Assembly (NCBI GenBank): GCA_031414595.1
Contig: JANNVX010000097.1
Location: 1 to 16,649, forward strand
DNA length: 16,649 bases
Direction of reading: 5' to 3'
Source: Deinococcales bacterium
GTDB taxonomy: Bacteria > Deinococcota > Deinococci > Deinococcales > JAAFIG01
Position numbers and translations under genes: made by a program. Of the stretch, positions 137 to 16,500 are shown piece by piece; position 1 is the first letter of the stretch, and each line of letters opens with the position of its first letter. The notes beneath the pieces are model-generated. The model saw only the letters and a program-made list of their open reading frames with translations. It did not search any database and was not told the DNA's origin.

Positions 137-265
137 TTGTATGATTGTGTTCAAGTGGAGTTCAATCAAAGCTCTCTGCATGGGATTCCACCCCAACCTT
201 TCGAGTCTCACGGCTTTGGCTCGAGCTTGGGGCTGCTGGTCGAACAAAAAACGCATTACCTCGAG

Positions 266-282
266 AATCACGGTATTGACTG
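266..282 (+). repeat. 17-bp direct repeat, left copy, flanking the TA module
   Basis: AATCACGGTATTGACTG (266-282) versus AATCACGGTTTTGACTG (909-925): 16/17 identical. Confidence 0.75.
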
Positions 283-286
283 CTGG

Positions 287-550
287 TCAATCTGGCTTTT
301 CAACACTTGCCCAAAATTCGTCAAAGCCCATGCGTTCACCTTTTTTGGCAGCACTCACTCGAGATTCAAGTAATTTGTGCAGTTTTTTAGAACGATACAA
401 CACCAAACGCTCGAGGTCGTCGGCATCTTCTGGAACAATCAGCACAGCAGCAGCAACCCCATTTTTGGTGATGATAACAGGACTATCTGCCGCATCAAGT
501 ACCACTTGCGATAAGGTATTTTTGGCTTGGCTCAGTGGAATCAGTTTCAT
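287..550 (-). CDS. Type II antitoxin, Phd/YefM family
   Basis: MKLIPLSQAKNTLSQVVLDAADSPVIITKNGVAAAVL fits the Phd N-terminal DNA-binding pattern. The ATG at 550 overlaps the toxin TGA (ATGA coupling). 87 aa. Confidence 0.85.
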   Translation of the reverse strand: MKLIPLSQAKNTLSQVVLDAADSPVIITKNGVAAAVLIVPEDADDLERLVLYRSKKLHKLLESRVSAAKKGERMGFDEFWASVEKPD

Positions 551-876
551 TGTTCTTCGCCTCCTATCCATAATTTATTGCCTTTTTTCTCGCCTATTGC
601 AATAATCAGTACAATTCCTAAAATCTCGGTTTCTGCTGAATTCTCCTCGAGTGTGAATCTGTACAGCACACGGTAGCGGTTTTGTTCTCCACTACGAAGT
701 TCCCAACTTGCTTCTTGAATGGTTGGATCGAGTGGTTTACGATTCTTAGTTTCGATGTTTGGTTGGAATAAAAGCTGCTCAAGAATGCTGTTTTTGATAC
801 TGGCGTGGTATTTTTTGTCTATCCACTCGAGGTCGTTTTTCACGCTGGTGTTGAATTCAATAACAAAACGAGCCAC
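547..876 (-). CDS. Type II toxin, RelE/ParE family
   Basis: 109 aa with F.IEF...V..DL, WELR...RYRVLY and IIAIG.K segments of the RelE fold. GTG start; translationally coupled to the antitoxin. Confidence 0.8.
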   Translation of the reverse strand: MARFVIEFNTSVKNDLEWIDKKYHASIKNSILEQLLFQPNIETKNRKPLDPTIQEASWELRSGEQNRYRVLYRFTLEENSAETEILGIVLIIAIGEKKGNKLWIGGEEQ

Positions 877-881
877 AGTTT

Positions 882-910
882 ATTATAGCTAGAATTCTAG
901 CTAAGTGCAA
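882..910 (-). promoter_or_regulatory. Sigma70-type TA promoter with overlapping palindromic operator
   Basis: Minus strand TTGCAC (910-905), 17-bp spacer, TATAAT (887-882), then 5 nt to GTG 876. A perfect 18-bp palindrome TAGCTAGAATTCTAGCTA (886-903) fills the spacer. Confidence 0.8.
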
Positions 911-925
911 TCACGGTTTTGACTG
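909..925 (+). repeat. 17-bp direct repeat, right copy, flanking the TA module
   Basis: AATCACGGTTTTGACTG, 16/17 identical to 266-282. Confidence 0.75.
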
Positions 926-1072: not shown

Positions 1073-2062
1073 ATGAATGCAGCCCTTAATTCAATTCTCG
1101 GCGGACTATTTCTACTTCTGGCATTTGCCACGGTTTTTTTGATGTATCACCTGTGGGGCTACCCTTTTGATAAAGCCCTACACAAAAGCGCTGCCCCACC
1201 CCGTTTGATGTTGCTGCACCGAATACTGGGTTTGGCATATGGAATTATTTATGTGCTGCTGATGACCCAAATGCTGCCACGCATGTGGACATACCAAGTC
1301 GAATTTCCTGCCCGTACTGTAGCGCACATTATTCTAGGGTTTGTGATTGGCAGTTTACTTTTAATCAAACTCTTTATTTTGCGTTTTGCGCGGCATTTTG
1401 AAGGATGGATGCCAAGCCTTGGCACGGGCTTACTGATTTGCACGGTGTTACTGACAGGGCTTTCGATTCCTTTTTCCTTTCGAGAACAAAACTTGGCTTC
1501 TGGACGCGGCGATTTAACCAGTCCAGCCAATTTAGAACGCTTAAAAACCTTATTGCCAAGCGCAAATTTTTCTCCAGACACCAACCTCGAGTCGCTGGCT
1601 ACCCCACTGGCACTCAATTCTGGACGGCAAGTGCTGTTGGGTGATTGTGTGATTTGTCATGACCTCCGCACCGTGCTACTTCGTCCTCGTACCCCAGCCG
1701 ATTGGCAACAAACAGTCGTGCGGATGATCGAGAAACCCAATCCTTCAGGCGAGATTACCCAGCGCGAAGCTGAGACGGTTACAGCCTATTTAATTGCCAT
1801 TACCCCAGATATTCAGCAATCCGCCCAATCAAAACGCGAACAAGCCCAAGCGCCAAGCGCAGCCTCGAGCATGGACACCAAAACCTTATTTGAAACGATT
1901 TGTTCGCAGTGTCACGGCTTAGATGAAGTTAAAAATTATCCCTTCTCGAGCAGTGATAGACCTCTGGCAGTGGTCAAACGCATGGTTGCTAACGGCATGA
2001 AAATTTCCGAAACTGACTTGCAGAGCATTGTCCAACACATCGAAAGCAATTTTATGAAGTGA
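1073..2062 (+). CDS. Membrane-anchored di-heme c-type cytochrome with an N-terminal ~4-TM His-containing domain
   Basis: Start moved to ATG 1073 because of SD-like GAGGTG at 1062-1067. About 4 hydrophobic helices with His residues (HRILG, HIILG). Two CXXCH motifs, CVICH (1646-1660) and CSQCH (1901-1915), each followed by V.RM (candidate axial Met). Confidence 0.8.
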   Translation: MNAALNSILGGLFLLLAFATVFLMYHLWGYPFDKALHKSAAPPRLMLLHRILGLAYGIIYVLLMTQMLPRMWTYQVEFPARTVAHIILGFVIGSLLLIKLFILRFARHFEGWMPSLGTGLLICTVLLTGLSIPFSFREQNLASGRGDLTSPANLERLKTLLPSANFSPDTNLESLATPLALNSGRQVLLGDCVICHDLRTVLLRPRTPADWQQTVVRMIEKPNPSGEITQREAETVTAYLIAITPDIQQSAQSKREQAQAPSAASSMDTKTLFETICSQCHGLDEVKNYPFSSSDRPLAVVKRMVANGMKISETDLQSIVQHIESNFMK

Positions 2063-2078
2063 TTTGGTAGACTAGACT

Positions 2079-2861
2079 ATGAAAATTGACTTACAAGGCA
2101 AATCCGCACTGATTACAGGCGCATCAAGGGGAATCGGACGGGCAACCGCGCTTGCACTCGCCGAAGTTGGCGCGGATGTGATTGTGACTGCCCGCAGCGC
2201 AGCCGAACTCGAGACACTGGCTGACGAAATCAGACAAAAAGGCACTCGAGCCATTGCGATTGCCAGTGATATTTCGGATTTCTCGAGCTTAGGTACGCTG
2301 GTCTCGAGAGGGATAGCCGAATTTGGGCAGCTTGATATTTTGGTCAATAACGCGGGGATTACCCAAGGCACAAAATTTACCAGCATGGACTATGAACTAT
2401 GGCAAAAAATTCAGCGTATCAACGTGGATGCTGCCATGAAACTGATGCAATTAACGTTGGATGGCATGGTTTCTCAGGGTTGGGGGCGGGTGGTGAACAT
2501 TGCCAGTATTGCCGCCAAATCTGGTTTGCGGTATAGCGCTGCCTACAATGCCAGTAAACACGCACTGCTCGGTTTAACCCGTAGTGTGGCACTGGATTAT
2601 GCAACCAAGGCTGTAACCGTCAATGCCGTCTGTCCGGGTTGGGTGCATACCGAAATGGTCGAACAAACTGTGACGAACATCATGGAAAAGACCAACCGCT
2701 CGAGAGAAGAAGCCATTGCTAGTTTGGTCAAAGATGTACCGCTAGGACGGATGGTCTCGAGTGAAGAAGTGGCAGCCCTAGTGGTTTTTTTATGTTCATA
2801 CCAAGCGGCTGCGATTACTGGGCAAGGCATCAATATAGATGGTGGCACAGTCATGAGTTAG
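2079..2861 (+). CDS. Classical short-chain dehydrogenase/reductase (FabG / 3-hydroxybutyrate dehydrogenase-like)
   Basis: TGASRGIG, NNAG, catalytic YNASK and NAVCPGWV.T motifs; 260 aa. Confidence 0.92.
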   Translation: MKIDLQGKSALITGASRGIGRATALALAEVGADVIVTARSAAELETLADEIRQKGTRAIAIASDISDFSSLGTLVSRGIAEFGQLDILVNNAGITQGTKFTSMDYELWQKIQRINVDAAMKLMQLTLDGMVSQGWGRVVNIASIAAKSGLRYSAAYNASKHALLGLTRSVALDYATKAVTVNAVCPGWVHTEMVEQTVTNIMEKTNRSREEAIASLVKDVPLGRMVSSEEVAALVVFLCSYQAAAITGQGINIDGGTVMS

Positions 2862-2891
2862 TCATCCATTATGAGTTTTGAAGATTTTACC

Positions 2892-2915
2892 GTAGGGGCA
2901 AGGCATGCCTTGCCC
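2892..2915 (+). repeat. GTAG-initiated REP-like palindrome between convergent genes; possible bidirectional terminator
   Basis: GTAG followed by the perfect 20-bp palindrome GGGCAAGGCATGCCTTGCCC (2896-2915). Confidence 0.65.
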
Positions 2916-2947
2916 ACCTTAGAGACACATTTTTTGGTCTGTTTTTG

Positions 2948-4336
2948 CTAAAACTGCGGAATAGGAATAACATTAAAAATCATACCAGCCAAAACTGCCA
3001 CAATTAAAATCAGCACGACCCGCCCGAACCAAGTGCCAATCAGCCATTGCAGCGCCAAATAAGCAGTCAGTAGAACCGCGCCGTAAAAGCCAATCAGGGC
3101 GGCTTGGGCGGGGAGCATTCGCATTTCACCGAGTACAATCAGCGCCCCGCAAACCAAGTAGAGCAACCACAGGTAATCGCCGCCTTGTTGTTTGGCTGGT
3201 GTAGGCGTGACCACAACGGGGGTTGCGAGTTGCGGTGTACCCCAGATTTGTCCTCCAGGTGGTTGTTTTGACAGGTTTTGATTGACCACAGGTGGTGGGC
3301 TGACATACGGCGGTGGGGTTGGTTTGGGTTGCTGAGGCGGTGGCGGTGGTGTGACCCTGACGGTTGGTTGGGCTTGTGGTTTTTTACCTTGGGTCTGCTC
3401 GAGCAGCGCCAGAAATGCTTGTGCGGTTTGTGGGCGTTCATCCACTTTCATTTTCATGGCTTTCTCGAGGACATCCGAGAAGGCTTTGCTGACTTTGGGG
3501 TTGAGTTCTCGAGCGCTTGGTTGTTTGACCCCACTGGCACGGTCGGTAGCTGCGACGGGTTCTTTGCCAGTCAAGGCAAATTGCAGTGTGCCAGCCAAGG
3601 CGTAGACATCGGTAAATGGTCCGCGTCGCGCCTCGGAAGCATACTGCTCGAGTGGGGCATACCCGGGGGTAATAATAATACTGACCCTTGCGCCTCCCGC
3701 AATTTCTCTGGCACTGCCAAAATCTATTAAGACTGCGCCGCGTTGTACCATCATAATGTTGTCGGGTTTAATGTCGCGGTGCAACAAGTTTGAACTGTGT
3801 ACTAGGGTGAGGGCTTCAACCACTTCTCGAGCTATTTGAACAACTTGGGCTTCGCTTAAAACCCCGCCCTTTTCGACCAGACTTTGTAAGGGTTTGCCCT
3901 CCAAGAATTCCATGGTGTAATACTCGGTGTCGTTCTCGGTGAAGACATCATAAACCCGAACAATATGAGCGCTTGGGGCGTTCAGGGTTAAACGCGCCAC
4001 CACCCGTGCTTCGTCGGCAAATCTGGAACGAGCTTCGGCAAATTCTTTTGCCCCATATGTGGCGGGTGGGCGGACACTCATCCCAACCCGCACACTGCCC
4101 GAAGGTTGAAATTCTTTGACCACCACGGGAATGCCCATGCCAGCATTCTGGGCTTTGTAGGTCACGCCAAAGCCGCCTTGTCCTAGAACTTTTTCGAGTT
4201 TATATTTACCGTTTTGTAGCACAGTGCCAGCTTTCATGGCAGTTGGGTACTGAGCGCCTTCTAAGCTCGCACCGCACATGCTACAGGCTTTATTGGACTC
4301 AGGATTTTGGGTGGCGCAATATGGACAAACAATCAT
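2948..4336 (-). CDS. Hanks-type Ser/Thr protein kinase with N-terminal Zn ribbon, Pro/Gln-rich linker and C-terminal TM helices
   Basis: CPYC..CSMC Zn ribbon; intact LGQGGFG, VVVKE, HRDIKPDN, DFG and YAPLE motifs; PPPPPQQPKP linker; about 3 hydrophobic C-terminal segments. Confidence 0.93.
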   Translation of the reverse strand: MIVCPYCATQNPESNKACSMCGASLEGAQYPTAMKAGTVLQNGKYKLEKVLGQGGFGVTYKAQNAGMGIPVVVKEFQPSGSVRVGMSVRPPATYGAKEFAEARSRFADEARVVARLTLNAPSAHIVRVYDVFTENDTEYYTMEFLEGKPLQSLVEKGGVLSEAQVVQIAREVVEALTLVHSSNLLHRDIKPDNIMMVQRGAVLIDFGSAREIAGGARVSIIITPGYAPLEQYASEARRGPFTDVYALAGTLQFALTGKEPVAATDRASGVKQPSARELNPKVSKAFSDVLEKAMKMKVDERPQTAQAFLALLEQTQGKKPQAQPTVRVTPPPPPQQPKPTPPPYVSPPPVVNQNLSKQPPGGQIWGTPQLATPVVVTPTPAKQQGGDYLWLLYLVCGALIVLGEMRMLPAQAALIGFYGAVLLTAYLALQWLIGTWFGRVVLILIVAVLAGMIFNVIPIPQF

Positions 4337-4349
4337 TGGGGTTTCCTAA

Positions 4350-6071
4350 TTAAAGTGGGTCTCGGGTCTCGAGTTTCATCACCAAGGCAGTGGCATTATC
4401 CGAGGTGCTGCGTTGCAAGGCTTGGCGCACCAATCGGTCGGCTAGGTCTTGCGGCTCGAGTGGTTCTAAGAGGGCAATTTCAAATTCTTTGGGTGGAAAT
4501 ACGCCCCAAACACCATCAGAGACAATTACTATTTTGGCGTTGGCTGGGATGGTCATTTCGCGCAGTTCCACATAATCTGGTGGTAATTCACGGTTGCTGC
4601 CCAATGCCCGCATGATTTTGTTGCTGTCGGGGTGATTATGGGCGGCTTCGGCAGCGATAATTCCCATTTTGACAAACATGGCGACCATACTGTGGTCTTC
4701 AGAAATTTGCACGGCTGTATCGGTAATTAAGTAGGCTCGAGTGTCGCCGACATGTGCAAGGGCGAGTTTGTCACCATCAGCAATCACGCCCGTAAAAGTA
4801 CAACCACCATTTTTGCCTTCCATTGCCCCAATCACCCTTGCATTGGCAAAAGCAATCGCTTCGTGGACAGCTTGGCTCGAGACTTCGGACAGTGGGTAAT
4901 CGAGAAACCCAGACACAGCCGCTTGGCTGGCATCTTCGCCTTTTGCCATCCCACCAATCCCGTCGGCAACACAAGCCACCACAATTGTATCGTTGTGGGC
5001 AGCGCCGGTGGCACGTCTGGCACGGTAGCCTACCGAATCTTCGTTGGTTACACGGTCTGGGTTGATTCCGACGGTGCTGGCAGTCCCAAGCACCCAAGCA
5101 TAACGCGGTTCAAAAGCCCGTTCTAATTTGCTGGCTAACTCGAGCGCATCGGATGGATTGACCCGCGTGGTGCTGGGCGAAAGCATGGCGGTTAAGGCTT
5201 GTGGCACACCGGGAATCTCGGGAAAGGAAATCAGCATTTCACCTTCGATTGGCATTTGCCCAGTCAAGGCATGGTACAAAAGTGCGCCTATGGCGTAAAC
5301 CCCTTCGTTGCCATTGATTTTATGTCCAGCCGCCCGTTCAGGAGCGCCATAACGCGGCGCTTCGGCACTGATTGCATCGCCGATTTTATGCACATTGGGT
5401 AAGCGCTGTAAGCGGGTTGGCTCGAGCAGCACATCACGCGGGTCTACCGAAACCATCGAAAAACCACGGGCGTGTAAATAGCGGTTCAATCTGGCTAAAT
5501 CCACAATTGCCGAAATAACCACTCTTTTGTTGCGTTCATAAATGGCAGATTCTAGGGTGTTGCCCTCGAGTTTAGGATGGGCAATCAGTATTTTGCCATC
5601 CACTTCACCAGCATCTATTAAATTCGGGAGCATTGGGTGCGGATAAAGGGCGCGAGTGACATCCGCGCCTCTGGCATAAACCGCCACCCGCACTTCTGAT
5701 CCATCTGGGGCTTTGGCAATCACCCGCCCTGCCGATTCTTGGGTTAAGAGCGCATATTCGCCACGTTCAAGTTTCATGATTGGCGGTACAGTTAATTGCG
5801 GCGCGGCACTGCTTGGCGCGGTTGGTGTTAAGATTTCTTCTTCGAGAAAACCACTGTCATCGGCTGGGGCTAACAACGGTAATTCTGGGGTGGCAATTTG
5901 TTCTTGCTCCCAAGCCAAAACATCTGGCGGAGGCATAAAGACTCCCGATTCCTCGGGGAGGACATAGACCCCATCGTCCATGTCTAGTAAATCATAAGGC
6001 TCAGACAACTCGATGGTGTCTGATACCTTATTGGTCACGCCTTCTAACTGGCGCGGTTCTTCATTGTTCAC
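4350..6071 (-). CDS. Degenerate kinase (pseudokinase) domain fused to a PP2C/PPM phosphatase
   Basis: PP2C motifs NEDS, VADGIGG, HVGDTRAY, SDGVW and DNAT are intact. The middle domain keeps YGAPE and VYAIGALLYHALTG but has MVSVDPRDV in place of HRDxKxxN and no DFG. Acidic N-terminal tail. The GTG start overlaps the FHA gene stop (GTGA). Confidence 0.88.
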   Translation of the reverse strand: MNNEEPRQLEGVTNKVSDTIELSEPYDLLDMDDGVYVLPEESGVFMPPPDVLAWEQEQIATPELPLLAPADDSGFLEEEILTPTAPSSAAPQLTVPPIMKLERGEYALLTQESAGRVIAKAPDGSEVRVAVYARGADVTRALYPHPMLPNLIDAGEVDGKILIAHPKLEGNTLESAIYERNKRVVISAIVDLARLNRYLHARGFSMVSVDPRDVLLEPTRLQRLPNVHKIGDAISAEAPRYGAPERAAGHKINGNEGVYAIGALLYHALTGQMPIEGEMLISFPEIPGVPQALTAMLSPSTTRVNPSDALELASKLERAFEPRYAWVLGTASTVGINPDRVTNEDSVGYRARRATGAAHNDTIVVACVADGIGGMAKGEDASQAAVSGFLDYPLSEVSSQAVHEAIAFANARVIGAMEGKNGGCTFTGVIADGDKLALAHVGDTRAYLITDTAVQISEDHSMVAMFVKMGIIAAEAAHNHPDSNKIMRALGSNRELPPDYVELREMTIPANAKIVIVSDGVWGVFPPKEFEIALLEPLEPQDLADRLVRQALQRSTSDNATALVMKLETRDPL

Positions 6072-6880
6072 GCGCCGTCACTCGAGTAAACAAACAAAAA
6101 TTTCATGTTGCCAAAGGCTACTTCGTCGCCATCGGACAAGGCTTGGGGTTCGATAATTCGTGGGCTGTACTGGGCTTGCCCAGCCCGTTTGACATAAACA
6201 CCGTTGGTACTGCCAAGGTCACGAACCAACCAAAAACCATTCTCGAGGTAAACTTCGGCGTGGCGACGCGAAATATAATTTTCGCCTTGCCCACCCGATA
6301 AATCAATATCCACAGGTCCGGCACTGGGGTCAAACCGTCCAACCACCATCCGTTCAGAGTGCATCACATAACCATCATTACTGTTTGCCCCTAGGTTTCT
6401 GGGGATTAAACGAGCCACCCGAGGGGCATTGTTGACAGGTGTTTCCATGGTGGCTTTGAGGTTGACCGAACCATCCAAAGTGGAATCCATGGCAGCCACG
6501 ACTGGTGCGACCACAGCAACCACAGCAGGTGCAGTTATCGCCTCTGGCTCGAGGTCAAGCGCCGCTTCATCGGCAGCCACAGGCGTTGGAGTCAGTTCTG
6601 GTAATTCTGGCAGAGATGGGGGCAAAACCTCGGCTTCGGGCATTGGGGCTAAACCGGGGATGGCGGTTTCAATCGCACTGACCACGGGTTGCACAATTTC
6701 TGGGGTCTCGAGGTTTGGTGGAACAAAAGCAGGGATTGCATCTGCCACAGCATTAACGACTGGTGTGGCGATTGTCCCAACATTCATTTCAACCGCCGGT
6801 GCGCTCAGTTCGACACCACAACCCTCGCAGAATTTTGAACCATCTGGATTTTCCGTACCGCATACGTGACAAACAATCAT
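6068..6880 (-). CDS. Zn-ribbon + FHA domain protein
   Basis: CHVC..CEGC N-terminus; acidic Pro/Ala linker; FHA motifs VGR, ISRRHA, DLGSTNG and GDEV.FG. SD AAGGAG at 6891-6886. Confidence 0.92.
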   Translation of the reverse strand: MIVCHVCGTENPDGSKFCEGCGVELSAPAVEMNVGTIATPVVNAVADAIPAFVPPNLETPEIVQPVVSAIETAIPGLAPMPEAEVLPPSLPELPELTPTPVAADEAALDLEPEAITAPAVVAVVAPVVAAMDSTLDGSVNLKATMETPVNNAPRVARLIPRNLGANSNDGYVMHSERMVVGRFDPSAGPVDIDLSGGQGENYISRRHAEVYLENGFWLVRDLGSTNGVYVKRAGQAQYSPRIIEPQALSDGDEVAFGNMKFLFVYSSDGA

Positions 6881-6901
6881 GGTGACTCCTTTAAGAATTC
6901 T

Positions 6902-6966: not shown

Positions 6967-8307
6967 TCATGCCCCAGTCAGTTTACGAATCTCTTCGTCC
7001 GATGGTAAACCATTGGCGTTGCTCGATCCACCGCCGACTTTAATGGTCTGGGTTTTCGCTCCCATTTTAATGGTTTTGGCTGTCCCAGCCGAAATTCCCT
7101 TGCCCGAATCAAGTTCTGATTTGGCTTGGTCAAGCACTTGGGTCATGGCAGCATTGCCGAGGCGAACAGTCATGGCTCGAGCAATTTCGATGGTCTTGGC
7201 AGCCGCTTGCGGATTGGTTTGGGCTTCTTGGGCGGCTTGTTTGACCAGTCCTTCAAGGTTGCGTTGCTGCACGTAACCCATCACAGTTGGGTTGACCGCA
7301 GCCGTGGCGTTCTCGTCAAAACTAAATTCAACAACCACATCCACGGGTGGAATTTCGCCCCGAGTTCCCTCGCCGGGCATGTCAAAAGTTAAACCAATCT
7401 GGGCAATTCGCACCCGAGCCGGTGGGCGCGGCGGCAAGGTTAGCTCGAGCAGAAAAGCAGTTTGGTCTTTAGATTCTAAGTTACCCGCTCGGGCTTTCAT
7501 TGCGCCACCCAAGTTCTGCATTTCGCATTCGGCAAGGAACGGGTAGACTCGAGTTACGCGGTCTAAAGTTACTCCTTTCACGCCACGCAAGCTAAACTCG
7601 AGGTTGGTGACGACTTCATTAGCCGCTTTCTTGAATTCTTCGCCAAGTACCTCATCTAAGTTATCAGCTAGAAAACTGATTGGAGGACTGGCGTTTTGTC
7701 CAACCACACGAATCACTCGCCCGCCAGTACGGTCAGAAATTTCGCCCATCAAGTCTTCGTTGAACTCATCACCTACGCCGATACTGGTAATTGCTACGCC
7801 TTGCGCCACATAGGTATTGGTCACGGCACGGCAAGCATCCTCATCAAAAGTTGCCCCATCTGTCATTAGCATCACCCGTTTATTGGTGTTGCCCGCTATT
7901 GTGTGGTTTAACGCCTCGAGCATCCCCAAGCCCATCATTGTGCCGCCCGAGTGTTTGCGTAAGGCTTCGACAGCCGCTAACATCTGATTGCGGTTGCCTG
8001 TTGGGGCGGTTAAGGTACTGGCATCATCGTCAAATTGAACAATCGCAACGCTGTCCTTATCAGATAAACTAGAACTCGAGACAAGGGCTTTCATGGCGTT
8101 CAGGGTTAAATCCAATTTGGTTTTACCACCCGCCACTTTTTCACGCATACTGCCAGAGGTATCCACAATAAAAGTTAAGGCCAGTGCTGCCCGAGTGGTG
8201 ATTTGTGGGGTTAGCTGTGCCAACAAAAAGAGTTTTTGGGTGTCGGCACTCCCTTCGGGTGAGGCTCGTAAATAATTGCGGTGGGGGGTTAAAGAGACTT
8301 CGATCAA
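6967..8307 (-). CDS. von Willebrand factor A (vWA) domain protein
   Basis: MIDAS motif DTSGSM, GGT.M, MTDG and IGVG.EFNE. TTG start with SD GGAGGA (8317-8312). Helical C-terminus. Confidence 0.92.
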   Translation of the reverse strand: MIEVSLTPHRNYLRASPEGSADTQKLFLLAQLTPQITTRAALALTFIVDTSGSMREKVAGGKTKLDLTLNAMKALVSSSSLSDKDSVAIVQFDDDASTLTAPTGNRNQMLAAVEALRKHSGGTMMGLGMLEALNHTIAGNTNKRVMLMTDGATFDEDACRAVTNTYVAQGVAITSIGVGDEFNEDLMGEISDRTGGRVIRVVGQNASPPISFLADNLDEVLGEEFKKAANEVVTNLEFSLRGVKGVTLDRVTRVYPFLAECEMQNLGGAMKARAGNLESKDQTAFLLELTLPPRPPARVRIAQIGLTFDMPGEGTRGEIPPVDVVVEFSFDENATAAVNPTVMGYVQQRNLEGLVKQAAQEAQTNPQAAAKTIEIARAMTVRLGNAAMTQVLDQAKSELDSGKGISAGTAKTIKMGAKTQTIKVGGGSSNANGLPSDEEIRKLTGA

Positions 8308-8461
8308 GGCATCCTCCTACGGAATGGTAATTACACACCATTCTACGCTTTTTGGGCTTAAAAAGTTCCTGATTGCGGCTACAACCAAAGGATGAGACCG
8401 ATTTTTGCTTGCTAAACCAAAAATCACACCCGCAGTAGTGATTTGCGTTACAATAACAGAC

Positions 8462-10339
8462 ATGGAAAACATCACTTGGCAAGAAAAATTCCGCTACTGG
8501 TTTGATAATGTCATGGCAAAAGGTCCACTTGCGACCATTGGCTTACTGTTTGTGGCAAGCATTGCTTTTATCAGTCTGATTGGTGTTTTGGTGACCCTGT
8601 TTGGTTTTGCCCCCGAAGGTGAAGGCGGTCAGCCCCAAGGTTTACCAGACGTGATTTGGGGCAACTTAATGCGAACCTTAGACAGTGGCACGATGGGTGG
8701 TGACACAGGCTGGGGCTTTCGGGTCTTTATGCTAATTGTCACGCTTGGTGGGGTTTTTCTGGTTGCCAGCTTAATCGGTATTATCTCTGGGGCGTTTGAT
8801 AGCAAAATCGAAGAACTGAAAAAAGGACGTTCACGGGTTTTAGAGAACGATCACACCCTGATTCTTGGGTGGAACTCGCAAGTCTACGGAATTCTGAACG
8901 AAATCTGTTTAGCCAACGAGTCACGCACCCGCCCTGCGATAGTGGTCTTGTCCGAAACTGACAAAAGCGAAATGGAAGAAAGCATCCGCGAACGGGTACA
9001 GAGTGGCAAAACCCGAATTATTTGTCGCAATGGCAACCCAATGGACTTAACCGACCTCGAATTGGGCAATTTTAACGCTGCCAGAAGCATCATCATTCTT
9101 GCACCAACCGACACCACCGACCCAGACTCGAGCATCATCAAAACCACGCTTGCCTTGACCAATCACCCAAAGCGCAGCCAAAAACCATTCCATATTGTTG
9201 CCGAAATCCAAGCCAGCGATAACTTAGAAGCCGCCAAGCTGGTTGGCAAAGACGAAGCCCATTTTATTCTGGCTAAAGATTTAATCTCGAGAATCACGGT
9301 GCAAACTTGTCGGCAAAGTGGTCTAAGTGTGGTCTACACCGAATTACTCGATTTTGGCGGCGACGAAATTTATATTTCCAAACAATCCGAACTGGCGGGC
9401 AAAACCTATTTTGAAGCCCAAATGTCATTTGCCAAATGCAGTGTCATGGGGTTTTCCAGAGGCGGCGCAATTCATTTAAACCCAAGTCCAGACACAAAAC
9501 TCGAGGCAAACGACGAACTAATTTTAATTGCCGAAGACGACAGTTTAATCACCCGCAGCCCAGCCCCAAGTCAGATTAACGAAGCTGCCATTTCAGATGC
9601 CAAAGAACCACAAGCCCAACCTGAAAAGACCCTGATTCTTGGTATTAACTCTACGCTTGGCACAATTATTTCCGAGCTTGACCAATACGTTGCCACTGGT
9701 TCACAAACCCTAATTATTGCCGATGCCGCTACTCCAGCCTTAGCCAATCCGACCAACCAGAATTTGCTCTTTAAGCGTGGCGACCCCGCCAGCCGCGCCG
9801 TTCTCGAGGGCTTACAACCCTTTGATTATGACCATATCATTGCCCTTGCCAGCGACACCATGCCGATGCAAGCCGCCGATGCCAAAACCCTGATTACCTT
9901 GCTGCACCTGCGCGACATCGCCGAGAAAAACGGCAACGACCTGAGTATTGTCTCGGAAATGCTCGACACCAAAAACCGCGAACTTGCCGAAGTTACCAAA
10001 GCCGATGACTTTATTGTGTCTGATAAGCTGATTAGTTTAATGCTTTCGCAAATATCCGAGAACAAACAACTCGCCGAAGTCTTCAGGTATTTATTTTCCA
10101 ATGATGGCTGCGAAATTTACTTGCGCCCAGCCAACTTGTATATCAAACAAGGCTCGAGCGCAGACTTTTATACTGTTTTAGAAGCCGCCCGTCGGCGCAA
10201 GGAAACCGCCATTGGCTACCGAATCGCCAAAGATGCCCACAATGCCAGCCGATCTTATGGTGTTAAAGTCAATCCCAATAAACTCGAGACCCTGACCTTC
10301 TCGAGTGAAGATAGAATTATTGTCTTGGCAGAAGAATAG
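8462..10339 (+). CDS. CASTOR/POLLUX (DMI1/SYM8)-like cation channel with tandem RCK/TrkA-N domains
   Basis: FRYWFDN.M; two TM helices around the pore segment TLDSGTMGGD; L.KGRS.VLE.DH.LILGW, GLS.VYTELLDFGGDEIY and G.EIYLRPA motifs. Start taken at ATG 8462 (TACAAT 7 nt upstream). Confidence 0.85.
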   Translation: MENITWQEKFRYWFDNVMAKGPLATIGLLFVASIAFISLIGVLVTLFGFAPEGEGGQPQGLPDVIWGNLMRTLDSGTMGGDTGWGFRVFMLIVTLGGVFLVASLIGIISGAFDSKIEELKKGRSRVLENDHTLILGWNSQVYGILNEICLANESRTRPAIVVLSETDKSEMEESIRERVQSGKTRIICRNGNPMDLTDLELGNFNAARSIIILAPTDTTDPDSSIIKTTLALTNHPKRSQKPFHIVAEIQASDNLEAAKLVGKDEAHFILAKDLISRITVQTCRQSGLSVVYTELLDFGGDEIYISKQSELAGKTYFEAQMSFAKCSVMGFSRGGAIHLNPSPDTKLEANDELILIAEDDSLITRSPAPSQINEAAISDAKEPQAQPEKTLILGINSTLGTIISELDQYVATGSQTLIIADAATPALANPTNQNLLFKRGDPASRAVLEGLQPFDYDHIIALASDTMPMQAADAKTLITLLHLRDIAEKNGNDLSIVSEMLDTKNRELAEVTKADDFIVSDKLISLMLSQISENKQLAEVFRYLFSNDGCEIYLRPANLYIKQGSSADFYTVLEAARRRKETAIGYRIAKDAHNASRSYGVKVNPNKLETLTFSSEDRIIVLAEE

Positions 10340-10341
10340 GG

Positions 10342-10393: not shown

Positions 10394-11568
10394 TATCCCT
10401 CTTGGTCATTCAGCAACTCGAGAAAGGCTTTTTCTAGGTCTGTAGGTAAGTCCTTACCGCGCCTCTCAGCATAAAAGGTGCGGTATGCCTCAAGGGGGCT
10501 AAGTTCTGGCGTTTGGGCTGTCTCGAGGGTGGTTTTGATTTCTTGGTTTCTAATTTCGGTCTCAAGCGCAAAGAGTTGACTGGGATTCCACCAAGATTTG
10601 ATGCCGTTTAGGATGCGGTCTTTTAAGCCTTGCATCGGGGAATCGAGTTGTATCACCAATTTGGCATGACCAGTAAAGCCTTTTAATTCCTCGAGTTTGC
10701 GTTCAATACCGTCCAAGTCGGTGCGGATGTTCTTTAAGGTCTTACCACTCGAGAGTGGAATATGCTGGACTTTAGCGGGTTTGCCGGGGCTAACTTCGAT
10801 GAGATTGACCCGTTTTTGTTCGCCGGCTTCACCAAAATCGAGTTGGATAATGCTGCCACTGTACTGCACAGGTGGGGCGCTACCGAGTTCTTGGGGTTTG
10901 TGCAGATGCCCGAGTGCCACATATTGGGCGCTCGAGGGGAAACTCTGTGGGTCTAGGCTGTAACTGTTACTAACATGAAAACTGTATTCCGAATTGGAGA
11001 GCAGTCCGCCATCTAAGGTGGTGTGTAGCATCAGGATATTGACCGCATCGGCGCGAAAACCTTGACAGATATGGTTGACAAAAAAACGCATTCCATCGCG
11101 GTACTTTTGTCGCCACTCGCCAACATCAGGGGCTTTGAGTAAATCGGCGGCTTTGACCAACCGTCGCTCGGATAAAAAGGGTAAGCCAGCCACCACCAAC
11201 GAACCCGCCTGTAACTCGAGGGTCACGGCTTTTAAGTCTGGGCGGACTGTGCCGAGTAAACTGACTTTGACCTTTGAAAGTAAACCCGCCACGCTCTCTA
11301 AACGCTGTGGGTTATCGTGATTACCAGCAATCACCACACTCGGAATACCAACTGCGCCTAGTGTGAGAAAAAAATTATAAACTGCACTTTCGGCTTCGGC
11401 ATTGGGATTAGGCATGTCGTAGACATCGCCAGCCACCAGCACCGCGTCTACTTTTTCGGATTTGGCTAAGGCAGCAATTTCCTCGAGCGCAGCCCGAATC
11501 TCGGAAGTCCGTTCAAAGCCGCGTAAGGTGCGCCCCGCGTGCCAGTCTGCCGTATGAAGTAACCTCAT
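10393..11568 (-). CDS. sbcD: Nuclease SbcCD subunit D (Mre11-like metallophosphoesterase)
   Basis: HTADWHAG, AGDVYD, IAGNHD, ALGHLH and YSGS...DFGE motifs. Start set at MRLLHTADWH (ATG 11568). Confidence 0.92.
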   Translation of the reverse strand: MRLLHTADWHAGRTLRGFERTSEIRAALEEIAALAKSEKVDAVLVAGDVYDMPNPNAEAESAVYNFFLTLGAVGIPSVVIAGNHDNPQRLESVAGLLSKVKVSLLGTVRPDLKAVTLELQAGSLVVAGLPFLSERRLVKAADLLKAPDVGEWRQKYRDGMRFFVNHICQGFRADAVNILMLHTTLDGGLLSNSEYSFHVSNSYSLDPQSFPSSAQYVALGHLHKPQELGSAPPVQYSGSIIQLDFGEAGEQKRVNLIEVSPGKPAKVQHIPLSSGKTLKNIRTDLDGIERKLEELKGFTGHAKLVIQLDSPMQGLKDRILNGIKSWWNPSQLFALETEIRNQEIKTTLETAQTPELSPLEAYRTFYAERRGKDLPTDLEKAFLELLNDQEG

Positions 11569-11644
11569 TGTTGGTATCATGACATAACCGACTGTGCTTT
11601 GGGATGGCATTTAAGCAGACCAAAAGCTGGAAGTAAAAATACTC

Positions 11645-11656
11645 GTAAACGTTTAC
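11645..11656. promoter_or_regulatory. LacI/GalR-type operator-like palindrome
   Basis: Perfect 12-bp palindrome GTAAACGTTTAC with a central CG, in the divergent intergenic region between sbcD and the small ORF. Confidence 0.45.
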
Positions 11657-11769
11657 AGTAGTTGCACTGACCGGCACTCACGGTGCAACAGGCACACCGC
11701 GAACAACAGCAACAGAGCAGAACACAAATGTGAATGCAAGCCAACATTCTTGCCTAAAGGTGAATGACC

Positions 11770-11982
11770 ATGAGTCGAATTCAAATCGAGAACGGATACA
11801 GCCTTTGTATCATGCACCGCCAACCCTATACCCACTTGTTGCTCGAGCAAACCCTACCCGATGGCAGTACGATTCTGCACGGCGAAAAGAAACTCGAGAA
11901 CAGCGAACTTGAAGCATTTTTAGCTTTCGGTTCAAACAACGCCCAAGCTATCCGAGAAGCATTTAGGCACAAAGACGCTTGA
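11770..11982 (+). CDS. Small hypothetical protein (70 aa; alternative start at 11764)
   Basis: SD-like AAGGTG at 11757-11762. Occupies an otherwise empty gap. Two CTCGAG sites read as LE codons, as in the neighbouring genes. No recognisable domain. Confidence 0.6.
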   Translation: MSRIQIENGYSLCIMHRQPYTHLLLEQTLPDGSTILHGEKKLENSELEAFLAFGSNNAQAIREAFRHKDA

Positions 11983-12007
11983 CGTTTGCAAACTTGGATG
12001 TTAAAGT
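11979..12007 (+). promoter_or_regulatory. tRNA promoter
   Basis: TTGACG (11979-11984), 17-bp spacer, TAAAGT (12002-12007) with a TG extension; lies 38 nt upstream of the tRNA. Confidence 0.7.
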
Positions 12008-12045: not shown

Positions 12046-12122
12046 GGGCGGTTAGCTCAGCTGGTTAGAGCACCCCGCTGATAACGGGGAGGTCCGCGGT
12101 TCGAGTCCGCGACCGCCCACCA
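12046..12122 (+). tRNA. tRNA-Ile (anticodon GAU)
   Basis: 77 nt. Acceptor stem GGGCGGT/ACCGCCC + ACCA; D-arm AGCTCAGCTGGTTAGAGC; anticodon arm CCCCG-CTGATAA-CGGGG; T-loop GGTTCGAGTCC. Confidence 0.97.
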
Positions 12123-12128: not shown

Positions 12129-12156
12129 TCCCCTCGAGAACTCGAGGGGATTTTTT
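12129..12156 (+). terminator. Rho-independent terminator after the tRNA; possibly also serves the convergent aldolase gene
   Basis: TCCCCTCGAG-AA-CTCGAGGGGA followed by TTTTTT. Confidence 0.8.
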
Positions 12157-13036
12157 ATGTCCAATCAGACACAGCTTGCAGTAATTTCTCTAGGGCGATG
12201 TTGGTATCGGCATCGACATCTAAAAGCGGCGCTCGAGGATACCCCGCGCTGACCTCGAGTAAACGCAAGGCTGCTTTTAAGCCCGGTACGCCATAATCAC
12301 GGGTCACGGCATACGATAACGGATTGACAACCCGTTGCAACTCGAGCGCTTTGTCTAAGTCGCCCTCAGAAAACGCCTGCATAATCGCTTTGAATGCCTT
12401 TGGCATGATATTCCCAGCCGCCAGAATCGCGCCTTGCGCTCCAACTGCCAAAGCTGGCAAAAGAGTAGGGGCATTACCGGTTAATAAATTAAAACCATTT
12501 GGCGTGACTCGAGCGATTTCGGTAAAATTCATAATGTCACCACTGGAATCCTTGACCCCAGCCACATTTGGGTGCATTCCAATCCGACTAAACCAAGCGG
12601 GTGCATGGGCAATCCCCGAAACTTGCGGGATGTTATAGACATAGACTGGAATCGGACTTGAATTTGCCACGGTCATAAAATGGGTCTCGAGAACATTTGG
12701 GGTCATGCTGCCACGGTTGTAATACGGCGCAATCACCAAGGCTGCATCCGCCCCTGCTTCTGAGGCATCACGGCAACGTTCAATCACATGGGCAGTGGCT
12801 TCGCCGCCAGCCCCTGCAATCATGGTCTTGATAGCTGGGATGGCTTCACGAGCGGCGGCTAAGACCCTTAGCCGCTCAGGTTCATCCAGGTAGGCTACTT
12901 CGCCATTTGAACCAAGGATTAGAAAACCATCCACATGAGGCTCGAGCCAAGCAATTAACTGCTGCAAGGCTGGCAAGTCCAAAGAACCATCTTTTTTGAA
13001 TGGGGTGGGTACAGGCGGGAATAATCCAGTTAGCAT
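12155..13036 (-). CDS. Dihydrodipicolinate synthase/NAL-family aldolase (4-hydroxy-2-oxoglutarate aldolase-like)
   Basis: G.FPPVPTPF, GSNGE (not GTTGE), YVYNIP and the Schiff-base Lys in GVKDSSGD. Confidence 0.88.
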   Translation of the reverse strand: MLTGLFPPVPTPFKKDGSLDLPALQQLIAWLEPHVDGFLILGSNGEVAYLDEPERLRVLAAAREAIPAIKTMIAGAGGEATAHVIERCRDASEAGADAALVIAPYYNRGSMTPNVLETHFMTVANSSPIPVYVYNIPQVSGIAHAPAWFSRIGMHPNVAGVKDSSGDIMNFTEIARVTPNGFNLLTGNAPTLLPALAVGAQGAILAAGNIMPKAFKAIMQAFSEGDLDKALELQRVVNPLSYAVTRDYGVPGLKAALRLLEVSAGYPRAPLLDVDADTNIALEKLLQAVSDWT

Positions 13037-13308: not shown

Positions 13309-13368
13309 CACACCTGATAAGCCAAGGGTTTTAAGAATTTTGTTGTATCGTTTAATCAAAGGAAAAAG

Positions 13369-15483
13369 GTGAACATGAAAAAGATTAGCATCGCCCTGAT
13401 TGGTTTAACATTGTTTGGGCTGGGGATGGCACAACAAACCCCGAAACTCGAGAAACCCGTTTGGTTTACGCCTTCGATTGGTGGAGTGATCAACTCGGCG
13501 CGTTTTAATGGCAATGATGGCTTAGCCATGACCACAGGCTCAGATGGGACAATTCAAATTTGGAACAGCAGCACAGGGCAACTGACTCGCAGTATCAAAG
13601 CCAGTCTTGGACGGCTGTATTTGGCGGTTTTTTCTAAAGATGGTTCAAAAATACTATCTTCTGGGGCAGATGACACAACGCGGATTTGGAATGCCAAGAC
13701 AGGTGAGTTAATTAAGGAACTAGAAAGTGGCTCGGCGGGTGCAAATTTTTCGCCAGACGGCAACCGCTTTGTGACGGCAGCCAACAACAACAAAGACCTT
13801 TTGGTGCTAAACAGCAAAGATGGCAAAACAGCCTTAACCTTAAAAGGACACACAGAATACATTTACGAAGCTGAATTCTCGGCAGATGGTAGCCGGATTG
13901 TTTCCTCGAGTGATGACGCATCCGCCAAAGTTTGGGATGCTAAAACAGGTAAATTGATTCGTTCCTTTAAGCACACCGAATATGTCTTAGATGCAGCTTT
14001 TATGGCAGGTAACTCGAGAATCGTGACTGGTGATGATGGCGGTTTGATGCGGGTTTGGGATGTGGCGACAGGTAAAGAACTCAAAAAACAAAAAGTCGGT
14101 GAGAGTGGTATTGCTGTGGTCGTCGTCAGCCAAGACCAAAGCACATTTTTGACAGGTAGTTACGACTCGAGTATTCGACTCTGGGATGCCAAAACATTCA
14201 AAGAAATACGGGCTTTTAAGGGTCATGAACGCGCCATTTATTCCCTAAGTTACGGACTTAAAGACCAAAAAATTATTTCTGCCAGCAGCGATGGCACAGC
14301 TAAAATTTGGGACACCAAAACTGGTAAACAACTGTTTTCCTACAACAAACACAGCTACAACACCAATTCAGTAGCGTTTTCTAATGACAACAAGAAAATC
14401 CTGACCAGTACAAATTTACGAGATGTTCGGATAACAGATACCGAAACTGGCAAAGAACTGCTTAAATTCCGTATTGGTGAAGTGCTTGCCACGGCTAATT
14501 TTTCACCCGATGGGGTTAATTTTGTAACCGCCAGCGACATCCACGGCGATGTTTGGAACGCCAGCACCGGCGAATTGGTGACTTCCTTAAATGGTCATGA
14601 TGGCGGAATGCTATCGGCGGTTTACTCGAGTGATGGACTGAGTATTTTAAGTGTTGGCGAAGATAAAACCGTGCGACTTTGGAATTCGACTTCGGGCGAG
14701 CAAAAATGGCAAATAACCCACGAAAAAGAGGTAGCCAAAGCCATTTTCTCCACCGACCAAAAGCAAGTTGTCAGTTTAGATGCAACTGGCACAACCTTTA
14801 TTTGGGATGCCCAAACAGGCAAAGAAATCAGTAAGTTTGCTGCCACAACCCCCGATTATCATTATTCACCAGCTTTAATTCCAGTCGGTAATAATGTGGT
14901 GATTGCTGCCAACCGACTTGACGGTGGTATTGGTGTTTGGGACTTAAATAACAAAGCCCTCTTTGAGCCTCGAGCCGATGAACTGAGTAAATCTGGCACA
15001 GTCCAAGCCGTTTCAGCCGATGCTTCACTGGCTTTGATTAACTTAGGCGACAGCATTTTTATTCAAGAACTGGCGACTGGCAAAACACTGCTCGAGATTC
15101 CAAAATTTGACAGCCGTTCAAAAGCCCAATTTAGTGCCAATAATCAGCAATTGGTGGTGGCTTCGCCAAGTGGACTGCAATTATTCCAAATACCAAATGA
15201 AGTGCTGACCCAAGTCAAAAAATTAGATGTACCCGCCCTGCAAATTTCTATCCCAAGCAGCCCAAGCAACCTTGAAACTCGAGTCGGTATAATTCTTGCC
15301 CTAAGCACCAAAGGCGCACTGACTGGCTTACAATTCTTGGGCTTAAAACGTTTAATCGAAGAGAAAGCCGAACCCAAGGAACTCACCGATTTTCTCGAGA
15401 CACGCCTCCCCGAAAAAGACTTTTTAGAACTTGTCTATGCTGGGTTTTTTGAACGATTCAATGTCCCACGCGGTAAGCCGTAA
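13369..15483 (+). CDS. Secreted/periplasmic WD40-repeat protein (about 14 blades, likely two beta-propellers)
   Basis: Signal-peptide-like MKKISIALIGLTLFGLGMA (alternative ATG at 13375). Repeated GH...FS.DG..I.S.S.D....WD units, 14 by hand count, the last ones degenerate. Short helical C-terminal tail. Confidence 0.9.
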   Translation: MNMKKISIALIGLTLFGLGMAQQTPKLEKPVWFTPSIGGVINSARFNGNDGLAMTTGSDGTIQIWNSSTGQLTRSIKASLGRLYLAVFSKDGSKILSSGADDTTRIWNAKTGELIKELESGSAGANFSPDGNRFVTAANNNKDLLVLNSKDGKTALTLKGHTEYIYEAEFSADGSRIVSSSDDASAKVWDAKTGKLIRSFKHTEYVLDAAFMAGNSRIVTGDDGGLMRVWDVATGKELKKQKVGESGIAVVVVSQDQSTFLTGSYDSSIRLWDAKTFKEIRAFKGHERAIYSLSYGLKDQKIISASSDGTAKIWDTKTGKQLFSYNKHSYNTNSVAFSNDNKKILTSTNLRDVRITDTETGKELLKFRIGEVLATANFSPDGVNFVTASDIHGDVWNASTGELVTSLNGHDGGMLSAVYSSDGLSILSVGEDKTVRLWNSTSGEQKWQITHEKEVAKAIFSTDQKQVVSLDATGTTFIWDAQTGKEISKFAATTPDYHYSPALIPVGNNVVIAANRLDGGIGVWDLNNKALFEPRADELSKSGTVQAVSADASLALINLGDSIFIQELATGKTLLEIPKFDSRSKAQFSANNQQLVVASPSGLQLFQIPNEVLTQVKKLDVPALQISIPSSPSNLETRVGIILALSTKGALTGLQFLGLKRLIEEKAEPKELTDFLETRLPEKDFLELVYAGFFERFNVPRGKP

Positions 15484-15507
15484 ACTTAAATTTATCCGTG
15501 AGGTATT

Positions 15508-15539
15508 TTGTAGGGCAGTGATGCCTTACAATTTTTTTT
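15508..15539 (+). terminator. Rho-independent terminator of the WD40 gene
   Basis: TTGTAGGGCA-GTGA-TGCCTTACAA (GNRA loop, one G-U pair) followed by T8. Confidence 0.8.
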
Positions 15540-15717
15540 AGAAACTCGAGTCAATTCAAGACCCACTTTGGATTAGTCAATTAGTCGTAAAACTTAGTGC
15601 AACGTCGGATAAGTATCTAAAAACCATAATTTTGTGATTAAAAACGCTCAGAGACGATATTGGTCGGCACAGATTACTTCTTTTTCCGACCCTGCAATGA
15701 GTTACTCCTTTTAGTCG

Positions 15718-15748
15718 GTTAATCAGTCAAAATACGCGACTGATTAAC
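15718..15748. repeat. 11-bp inverted repeat downstream of the minus-strand hypothetical gene (possible terminator or binding site)
   Basis: GTTAATCAGTC, 9-nt loop, GACTGATTAAC. Confidence 0.5.
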
Positions 15749-15774
15749 ACAATTTGGTATGATTGATCATTAGG

Positions 15775-16500
15775 TCACAACTTTTCTTCGATTGCCTTTA
15801 AGAACGTATTTTGAGTAGCATCATTTAGGAATTTTAGAAACTTATATGTTCCGTCGGCTGTCCGCTCACCGAAAGAAAAAAATCTCTTCATTCCAGCGTT
15901 TTCTAAAGTAAAGTAACGCCTAGTTCCTATTGAATCCACACTTAATGCTGTGAAGTACACTTCGGGAATTAAAATTGGCTTTGGAAAAGTAAAAACAAAA
16001 ATTTTCGTATTCGATACTTCAAAACGCTCTACATTAAACGCAGCCGCCATCTCTTTCATGGGGGCATAGTTATCTACAGGGTAAGCCTGCTCTTGCGTAA
16101 AGTAACCAAGGTCAATGCTCATGGTTTCTGTCAGACCACGCAGATAAGCTCCTAATGCAAGCACATCAGACTTAGAAATTTTATTGACAATAATCTGCTC
16201 AATTTCTGGATGCTTTGCAAAAAAAAGTGTAGGTAAGACCTTATGGGGCAGAAAAAAATGAATAGGACGAAAAATAAGTTTTCCATCAAAATTATAGAGC
16301 TTGAAGTTACGCTGAACGGAAAAAGCACTTGGCGTGGTTTTTGAGTAAAGTTCTTCAAGTTGTTTTCTTGCATCCACGCTACTCGAGTAGGAAGCATTAG
16401 ATTGGACTTTGACTTTATTCTGGGTTAAACCAATAAAGAAAATAAGAACAGAAAGCACAAAACTAATAATGCCCATAGCAATGCCGAATGATTTATCCAT
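15775..16500 (-). CDS. Hypothetical membrane-anchored protein
   Basis: 241-aa ORF with SD AGGTGG (16510-16505) and one N-terminal TM helix. C-terminal FPKP...PEVYF...RYFTLE segment. AT-rich. Confidence 0.75.
   Translation of the reverse strand: MDKSFGIAMGIISFVLSVLIFFIGLTQNKVKVQSNASYSSSVDARKQLEELYSKTTPSAFSVQRNFKLYNFDGKLIFRPIHFFLPHKVLPTLFFAKHPEIEQIIVNKISKSDVLALGAYLRGLTETMSIDLGYFTQEQAYPVDNYAPMKEMAAAFNVERFEVSNTKIFVFTFPKPILIPEVYFTALSVDSIGTRRYFTLENAGMKRFFSFGERTADGTYKFLKFLNDATQNTFLKAIEEKL

Follow-up and report, generated by a model that had tools for sequence, protein, structure and literature searches.

We found that the hexamer CTCGAG is a genuine, lineage-wide highly iterated palindrome in an uncultured family of Deinococcales, to which belongs the bacterium whose 16,649-nt contig (JANNVX010000097.1 of assembly GCA_031414595.1; hereafter the window) we analysed. 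The window holds a dispersed array of 73 copies at 220..16387, strandless since the motif is a palindrome, with the first copy at 220-225 and the last at 16382-16387; this amounts to about one site per 228 bp. In 200 shuffles of the window that preserved dinucleotides the mean count was 2.14 (s.d. 1.37, maximum 6) and none reached 73 (0/200), an enrichment of 34-fold. The sites fall in all three reading frames (34, 12 and 20, with 7 more in non-coding DNA or at edges), and none of the 13 called genes is without a site.

The window corresponds to contig C97 in the assembled genome G000 (4,488,778 bp in 120 contigs; 47.2% GC, 94% completeness). Throughout this genome CTCGAG occurs 23,235 times, that is once per 193 bp or 5,176 times per Mb, with a ratio of observed to expected (O/E) of 23.9 against base composition. 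A first-pass annotation of the window had counted about 73 copies and put the excess at 18-20-fold; the count was exact, and the excess was right or, by the shuffles, conservative. CTCGAG is the most over-represented hexamer in G000, followed by its own one-base shifts; the best unrelated hexamer reaches an O/E of 4.1, and among the 64 hexamer palindromes only CTCGAG exceeds 2.2. Every one of the 105 contigs longer than 5 kb carries 2.6-8.6 sites per kb, and among 732 ten-kb segments the minimum is 13 sites and the median 52. Bases flanking the sites are nearly unbiased (frequencies 0.17-0.30). The motif is therefore a bare hexamer, with no extended consensus, and is not part of a repeat element.

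We then considered how much of the excess codon and amino-acid usage could explain, using 3,961 genes of G000 (88% coding) called by a codon-usage score trained on long open reading frames (ORFs). Coding DNA had 5.15 sites per kb and non-coding DNA 5.37, the non-coding total being 2,849 sites versus 99 expected (29-fold). Coding sequences contained 20,422 sites, versus 2,007±52 after synonymous shuffling within genes (20 shuffles, maximum 2,109; about tenfold) and 923±22 under codon permutation. By frame these sites numbered 12,242, 3,955 and 4,225, and the two out-of-frame forms exceeded the expectation that preserves codon pairs by 1.73 and 2.13 times. Outside the motif, CTC accounts for 7.9% of the codons for Leu and GAG for 19.9% of those for Glu; 59.8% of the 20,468 Leu-Glu pairs are nonetheless written CTCGAG, versus 1.6% expected from context-free codon use. 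Leu-Glu is also the dipeptide with the highest O/E in G000, 2.22, whereas Glu-Leu stands at 0.98, indicating that the motif has altered protein sequences. The view of the first-pass annotation that codon or amino-acid bias is insufficient is thus borne out by the synonymous shuffle, by the writing of Leu-Glu and by the out-of-frame sites, whose excess persists under the dicodon-preserving null that it had named as decisive.

To place the window genome among its relatives, we used 18 other genomes of the same family (five genera in all; completeness 57-94%) and 12 genomes from four other families of the order, 31 genomes in total. All 18 other family genomes carry 4.3-6.8 CTCGAG per kb, so that the likeness to the cyanobacterial palindrome HIP1 (GCGATCGC), drawn by the first-pass annotation from one contig, extends to the lineage. 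The 12 genomes of the other families carry 0.03-2.9 sites per kb. GC content in samples of the family ranges from 45% (G006, O/E 29) to 59% (G013, O/E 14.7), and non-coding DNA of G013, a closed genome from which 400 kb was sampled, has 6.8 sites per kb. We also sampled 200 kb from near-complete genomes of two other families (G019:C4:500001-700000 and G025:C1:500001-700000). Non-coding DNA there was about sixfold enriched (52 versus 8.4 sites in G019 and 38 versus 6.7 in G025), and coding counts were 1.6-1.9 times those of synonymous shuffles, gene calls being rough in such high-GC DNA. A wider draw comprised 150 genomes, all of one order. In it a Deinococcus-like family (f3, 82 genomes) was site-poor, with 26-2,175 sites per genome; one genus (g9, 27 genomes) had 1,455-2,803 sites per genome, three other genera (g13-g15) 1.4-3.4 sites per kb, and another family (f2) up to 2.4 per kb. 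The density range in Deinococcota is 0.01 to 6.8 sites per kb. Enrichment of CTCGAG thus varies by degrees over the order and reaches its extreme in this family. The first-pass annotation was right to point to Deinococcota: related loci are titled Deinococcales or Deinococcota bacterium. A search of G000 with the 16S rRNA model RF00177 gave no match, and the taxonomic placement relies on these titles. Genomes like G019 and G025, where the enrichment is weaker, may offer cultivable experimental material.

The signal does not stem from library preparation or assembly, the other way in which the first-pass annotation thought it might fail. Contigs assembled independently from sequencing run X1, which may be the source sample, match positions 2001-12000 of the window with 0 differences. 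Run X5, from another study, contains a relative about 93-94% identical, with 428 differences along 6.2 kb and 119 along 2.2 kb. Runs X6 and X7, with small shares and short pieces, did not enter the evidence. The titles of six related loci indicate that several assembly projects were involved, and all 18 further family genomes agree.

Viral contigs of IMG/VR were scanned separately with a three-site pattern, which gave at least 126 stretches; 80 loci were fetched. Most of these matches have 63-72% GC and many GAGCTC, and look like cases of codon bias; five whole viral records have 0.6-3.7 sites per kb. Two contigs, L156 (G171; 100 CTCGAG and 1 GAGCTC in 36.9 kb) and L141 (G172; 18 CTCGAG and 1 GAGCTC in 4.8 kb), are high in GC and may be phages of Thermaceae-like hosts.

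The sites in G000 are spaced nearly exponentially (mean 191 bp, coefficient of variation 0.99), with a three-base periodicity that comes from the frame preference. A spacing of 6, which would create GAGCTC, is absent genome-wide, and spacings of 8-14 bp are depleted. Intergenic density is 4.8 per kb in divergent, 5.7 in tandem and 6.5 in convergent spacers, which speaks against any strong tie to promoters or terminators. We aligned orthologues of G000 with those of a genome of the same genus (G006; 216 pairs, median amino-acid identity 77%) and of another genus (G013; 198 pairs, 64%). In G006, 50-58% of G000 sites recurred at the aligned place, versus 18% for other hexamers; in G013, 14-25% did, versus 7%. 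Where Leu-Glu is aligned with Leu-Glu, however, the relative has the site at a frequency of 0.77 if G000 has it and 0.59 if not (G006; odds ratio 2.4), or 0.46 and 0.37 (G013; odds ratio 1.4). Such low odds ratios indicate that co-occurrence mostly reflects a standing pressure at eligible positions rather than inherited sites. Positional conservation, which the first-pass annotation proposed to test in orthologue alignments, stands at 2-3.5 times the background of other hexamers, yet appears weak at Leu-Glu pairs: sites at aligned Leu-Glu were largely gained independently in the relatives, and what is maintained is the density and not particular sites.

The variants that differ from CTCGAG by one base number 11,992 in G000, versus 17,996 expected (summed). 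Those reached by transition have an O/E of 1.07-1.23 and those reached by transversion 0.17-0.69; transversion variants overlap other avoided words (CTAG, CGCG, CACGAG, CTGGAG), so only the lack of depletion among transition variants can be interpreted. From the numbers of perfect (N0, 23,235) and one-off (N1, 11,992) sites we obtained a bias factor, 18×N0/N1, of 34.9 (ln 3.55). By this simple mutation-balance argument, fixation would favour gains over losses by about 35 to 1, which would correspond to a force per site of the size of codon bias.

Fifteen stretches of G000 longer than 1.8 kb are free of the motif, the longest being 4,941 bp, and all have 32-44% GC. Four such islands (32-38% GC) were annotated, at C46:36674-41608, C30:4286-7534, C96:7398-10013 and C49:33409-35798. 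Nine of their 13 proteins match Pfam families, among them a glycosyltransferase, flippase-type polysaccharide synthesis, an acetyltransferase, a DegT aminotransferase, clostripain, AAA/TPR and ABC-3C defence domains; proteins of unknown type are also present. Composition and gene content suggest that these islands are accessory cargo that arrived recently. DNA of a different history can be told by its lack of the motif.

Many other palindromes of G000, of restriction type, are severely purged in a lineage-specific manner. Thirty-four of the 64 hexamer palindromes have an O/E below 0.1, and ten have 0-6 copies versus 780-970 expected; examples are GGGCCC (0 copies), TGCGCA (2), CGATCG (3) and GAGCTC (6). 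GGCC occurs 152 times versus 13,951 expected, and members of the degenerate restriction words GDGCHC and GRCGYC are near zero. The purged sets vary between genomes: in G000, G006 and G013, respectively, the O/E is 0.006, 0.85 and 0.06 for GTGCAC, 0.18, 1.32 and 0 for CAGCTG, and 0.14, 0.50 and 1.48 for GATC. GAGCTC has at most 25 copies in 16 of the 19 family genomes. CTCGAG is the one palindrome that escapes this purge consistently, in G000 as well as in the sampled parts of G006 and G013.

What holds the sites at about 5 per kb? We tentatively favour a weak, ubiquitous, directional force on long-resident DNA, most likely acting through a reader in natural transformation or recombination; we regard this as quite possible, though short of probable. 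It would amount to a weak genome-wide fixation bias towards CTCGAG that depends on residence time. A putative sequence-specific reader in the transformation or recombination pathway, probably a dimer because the motif is a 6-bp palindrome, would cause CTCGAG-rich fragments to be preferentially taken up or recombined. Molecular drive would in this way spread the motif and make it a family-level mark of 'self', as is now proposed for HIP1 and as the DNA uptake sequences (DUS) of Neisseria and the uptake signal sequences (USS) of Pasteurellaceae such as Haemophilus do. We rank drive linked to transformation or recombination first because work on HIP1 points to natural transformation. In the accessible text of Kamoku and Nielsen (bioRxiv 10.1101/2024.09.10.611283), HIP1 raises transformation efficiency in Synechococcus PCC 7002, homologous sites giving up to a 7-fold gain and, with methylation, more than 100-fold; part of another report (GBE 2026, PMC13756078) proposes HIP1 as an uptake 'watermark', in a study that regressed HIP1 density on the presence of gene families with phylogenetic correction. 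The competence proteins ComEC and DprA are each encoded in G000 and in 17 of the 18 other family genomes. The link to transformation or recombination is suggested by analogy, and the weight left over by this proposal and the alternatives below would lie on a mechanism yet unconceived.

Several observations weigh against this proposal. All 12 genomes from the other families, motif-poor Deinococcus-like ones included, also encode ComEC and DprA, which are therefore necessary and non-discriminating. Known uptake sequences are 9-12 bp long, non-palindromic and have an extended consensus, whereas the motif here is a bare 6-bp palindrome. Thermus and Deinococcus are reported to take up DNA without sequence preference. 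The effect of HIP1 on uptake is methylation-dependent and we found no conserved methylase here, so the analogy is incomplete. RecC, the usual partner in a Chi-like reading, was found in 0 of the 31 genomes, and PF12705, the nuclease domain of AddAB/RecB type, is patchy (G000 and 12 of the 18 other family genomes); in G000 it matches only one protein, of 256 aa, encoded on contig C62 some 1.3 kb away from a gene for a type I methylase. Finally, the spacing of sites is random rather than even, and their counts per 10 kb are over-dispersed (variance/mean 1.86).

A bolder form of the transformation proposal, which we consider somewhat unlikely, is that CTCGAG serves as a methylation-independent 'kin watermark', whereby a dimeric uptake or recombination reader would favour DNA dense in the motif within an exchange community that purges dozens of restriction sites. 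If true, CTCGAG would be the first highly iterated palindrome to do without a conserved cognate methylase, and would provide a second independent system for the 30-year-old question of HIP1.

The best surviving alternative is methylation-directed biased repair, Elhai's model for highly iterated palindromes (HIPs), in which repair that reads CTCGAG methylated by one or more enzymes converts near-sites into sites, or needs dense sites for strand discrimination. According to the portion of PMC4390886 at hand, high-frequency HIPs in cyanobacteria accompany a methylase of matching specificity. The first-pass annotation had similarly suggested an orphan XhoI-like methylase with a Vsr/MutH-like partner. 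This found no support in our searches. The XhoI-family nuclease (PF04555) was found in 0 of the 19 family genomes and in one of the 31 genomes searched (G021), and Vsr (PF03852) in 0 of the 19 and one of the 31 (G029); MutH was not searched for. In G021 the XhoI-family nuclease gene is convergent with that of a PF01555 methylase, whose close relatives were found only in G022 and G027 (63%); its best matches in the family were partial, at 33-47% identity. On a Methylocystis plasmid, the partner of a PaeR7I-family nuclease is a methylase with an Eco57I domain. That type of methylase had a clear relative only in G030 (57-58%), and the matches in 6 of the 19 family genomes were 22-37% identical.

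G000 is itself rich in methylases, as the repair model would have it. We found 9 matches to PF01555, 5 to PF00145, 1 to PF02086, 10 to PF02384 and 9 to PF07669, which merge into 24 genes, among them three HsdM-like genes of type I and two with TaqI-like specificity domains. These enzymes, however, are not conserved. We compared the matches to PF01555, PF00145, PF02384 and PF02086 in G000 and in one good genome per genus (G006, G013, G010, G011 and G012). No cluster of methylases (at least 35% identity over at least 60% of length) was present in more than three of the six genomes; G013, a single contig, had no PF01555 match and G010 no PF00145 match. Methylase matches between G000 and G013 were all 29-39% identical, versus the median of 64% for the 198 orthologue pairs. 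None of the 24 G000 genes was shared across the five genera; Dam (PF05869), EcoRI-methylase, MT-A70 and type III enzymes were not searched for. Within the classes examined, a conserved orphan methylase with Vsr-type repair is, thus, probably not the driver. Sequence does not reveal the specificity of a methylase; non-orthologous enzymes, or a class outside the search, could share specificity for CTCGAG, and the overall depletion of one-off variants would also suit the model; the T-bearing variants, however, which a Vsr-type process should purge, are the commonest (O/E 1.07 and 1.23). Taken together, we consider biased repair unlikely.

The methylase repertoire of G000 is also of note for its size. 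It is very large and fast-changing, and G006 and G013 hold far fewer such genes. Several of the proteins are of about 1,100-1,270 aa with Eco57I or N6_Mtase domains. The genes lie on contigs C4, C12, C18, C22, C27, C32, C41, C43, C44, C47, C48, C62, C64, C67 and C89, and further on C90, C98, C100, C104 and others.

A density-dependent chromosomal function, in which a putative nucleoid-associated or organising protein would bind CTCGAG and cells would benefit from high, even coverage, appears less likely still. Its appeal lies in a site density that is even across coding DNA, non-coding DNA and all 10-kb segments, in the persistence of the motif over a 14-point range of GC and in the retention of sites above background in both relatives; the available part of Xu et al. 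(PMC5861425) argues for such a role of HIP1. Most of the conservation vanishes, however, once the propensity of Leu-Glu is taken into account, and the accessory islands work without the motif.

Alternatively, CTCGAG could be a Chi-like mark of 'self' that attenuates a helicase-nuclease at DNA ends and stimulates recombination, DNA without the motif being degraded; this seems to us very improbable. Chi sites, read by RecBCD or AddAB, are asymmetric and orientation-dependent, whereas CTCGAG is a palindrome, and both the lack of a RecC match and the patchiness of PF12705, with its 256-aa match in G000, speak against it. The lack of the motif in low-GC accessory DNA is what such a mark would predict, and the effect of HIP1 has been called reminiscent of Chi in the text seen of Kamoku and Nielsen (bioRxiv 10.1101/2024.09.10.611283).

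A by-product of base composition, or of bias in codons, dipeptides or dicodons, has practically no chance of being the source of the excess; nor has a repeat element dispersed through the genome, nor an artefact of library or assembly. All were tested and rejected for G000. In the 68%-GC relative G025, 532 of 580 sites are in frame 0 and a synonymous shuffle gives 310, half its sites, so that codon bias contributes in high-GC relatives. G000, at 47% GC, makes sparing use of CTC and GAG outside the motif, is enriched in non-coding DNA and out of frame, has flanks without consensus, and shares its signal with genomes and contigs of independent assembly.

Individual features of the window illustrate these properties. 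A single SDR gene (2079-2861, plus strand), whose product matches Pfam adh_short (E=1.7e-57), has four sites within 2208..2308, at 2208 (Leu-Glu), 2245 (Thr-Arg), 2282 (Ser-Ser) and 2303 (Ser-Arg). They lie in frames 0, 1, 2 and 2, so that one gene covers all three frames, and all four readings that the first-pass annotation gave for them match the translation. A strandless hairpin at 12129..12156, CCCCTCGAG-AA-CTCGAGGGG followed by ATTTTTT, has a 9-bp stem made of two CTCGAG copies (at 12133 and 12141) plus CCC/GGG. It is placed between a tRNA (12046-12119, plus strand) and the end of a DHDPS-family gene (12155-13036, minus strand) and, judged by its shape, may be a terminator. Of the 783 site pairs in G000 that are spaced 7-20 bp, 185 are flanked by a run of T or A. 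A close pair at 10283..10305 on the plus strand, 17 bp from start to start, lies at the 3' end of a gene for a Castor/Pollux-like channel (8405-10339). The longest site-free stretch of the window is 1,046 bp (8081..9126, strandless, between sites at 8075 and 9127), which fits what near-exponential spacing permits.

The window also encodes, on the minus strand at 2948-8307, a signalling cluster of four consecutive genes, for a zinc-ribbon Ser/Thr protein kinase, a 573-aa protein with a PP2C phosphatase match in its C-terminal half, a zinc-ribbon FHA protein and a VWA protein. An ORF of 154 aa at 141-605 (plus strand) has no Pfam match, and the codon-usage score favours minus-strand ORFs at 287-571 and 547-876.

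In the literature searched we found no report of CTCGAG as a highly iterated or over-represented palindrome; among the listed papers touching on CTCGAG, Thermus, Meiothermus or over-representation, none was relevant by title or abstract. In the retrieved portions of papers on CTCGAG, Deinococci and palindromes it appears only as a methylated motif, and the listed papers on highly iterated palindromes and methyltransferases all concerned cyanobacteria, apart from one on Argonaute, which also used cyanobacterial proteins. Work on HIPs has until now been confined to cyanobacteria, where methylation-directed repair, nucleoid structure and DNA uptake are debated as their function.

Among known systems, CTCGAG has descriptive features of HIPs: a genome-wide excess, presence in all frames and in non-coding DNA beyond codon bias, and a clade-wide distribution. 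Going by the sections of PMC4390886 and PMC5861425 available, HIP1 and the alternate HIPs are likewise short GC-rich palindromes, hugely over-represented across a clade, found in all frames of genes and in spacers, overriding codon choice and with function unexplained. HIP1, however, is an 8-bp word of cyanobacteria, and CTCGAG a 6-bp word in another phylum. The density is 5,176 per Mb for CTCGAG versus 300-2,700 per Mb given for HIP1 in the same part of PMC4390886, and the O/E 24 versus 55-228. HIP1 has the methylases DmtA and DmtC, whereas we found no conserved cognate methylase for CTCGAG in the families searched; and positional conservation beyond neutral expectation, weak for CTCGAG, is reported for HIP1, along with a chromosomal periodicity of 10-90 kb, in what was available of Xu, Lawrence and Durand (2018, PMC5861425).

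The motif resembles DUS and USS in being lineage-specific, present in genes and spacers at a cost to protein sequence, and scarce in accessory DNA of low GC; now and then two copies form a terminator-like hairpin, and the genomes have competence genes. Like them it is under-represented in DNA that, from its composition and gene content, seems recently acquired. DUS and USS are 9-12 bp long and asymmetric, occur about once per kb with an extended consensus, and have a known uptake bias; CTCGAG, a palindrome of only 6 bp that occurs 5 times per kb, lacks both an asymmetric core and such a consensus.

The restriction-modification systems XhoI and PaeR7I recognize the same word, and members occur in the order (PF04555 with PF01555 in G021, a PaeR7I-type methylase in G030). 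Restriction sites, however, are normally avoided, the nuclease was found in none of the 19 family genomes and the methylase types are not conserved in the family. In E. coli, Dcm/Vsr repair tied to a methylated palindrome skews the frequencies of CCWGG and CTAG-type words few-fold, versus 24-fold here, where Vsr was found in none of the 19 family genomes and a depletion of T variants is not seen.

What is new here, then, is the different word and phylum, the higher density, the turnover of sites and that no conserved methylase was detected. These results weaken models that need a conserved orphan methylase and strengthen those of a weak genome-wide fixation bias. A XhoI site every 190 bp is also a strong taxonomic marker, useful for binning and for spotting DNA of different history. 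Being independent of HIP1, denser and spread over a wide range of GC, CTCGAG allows the competing models of highly iterated palindromes to be tested by comparison.

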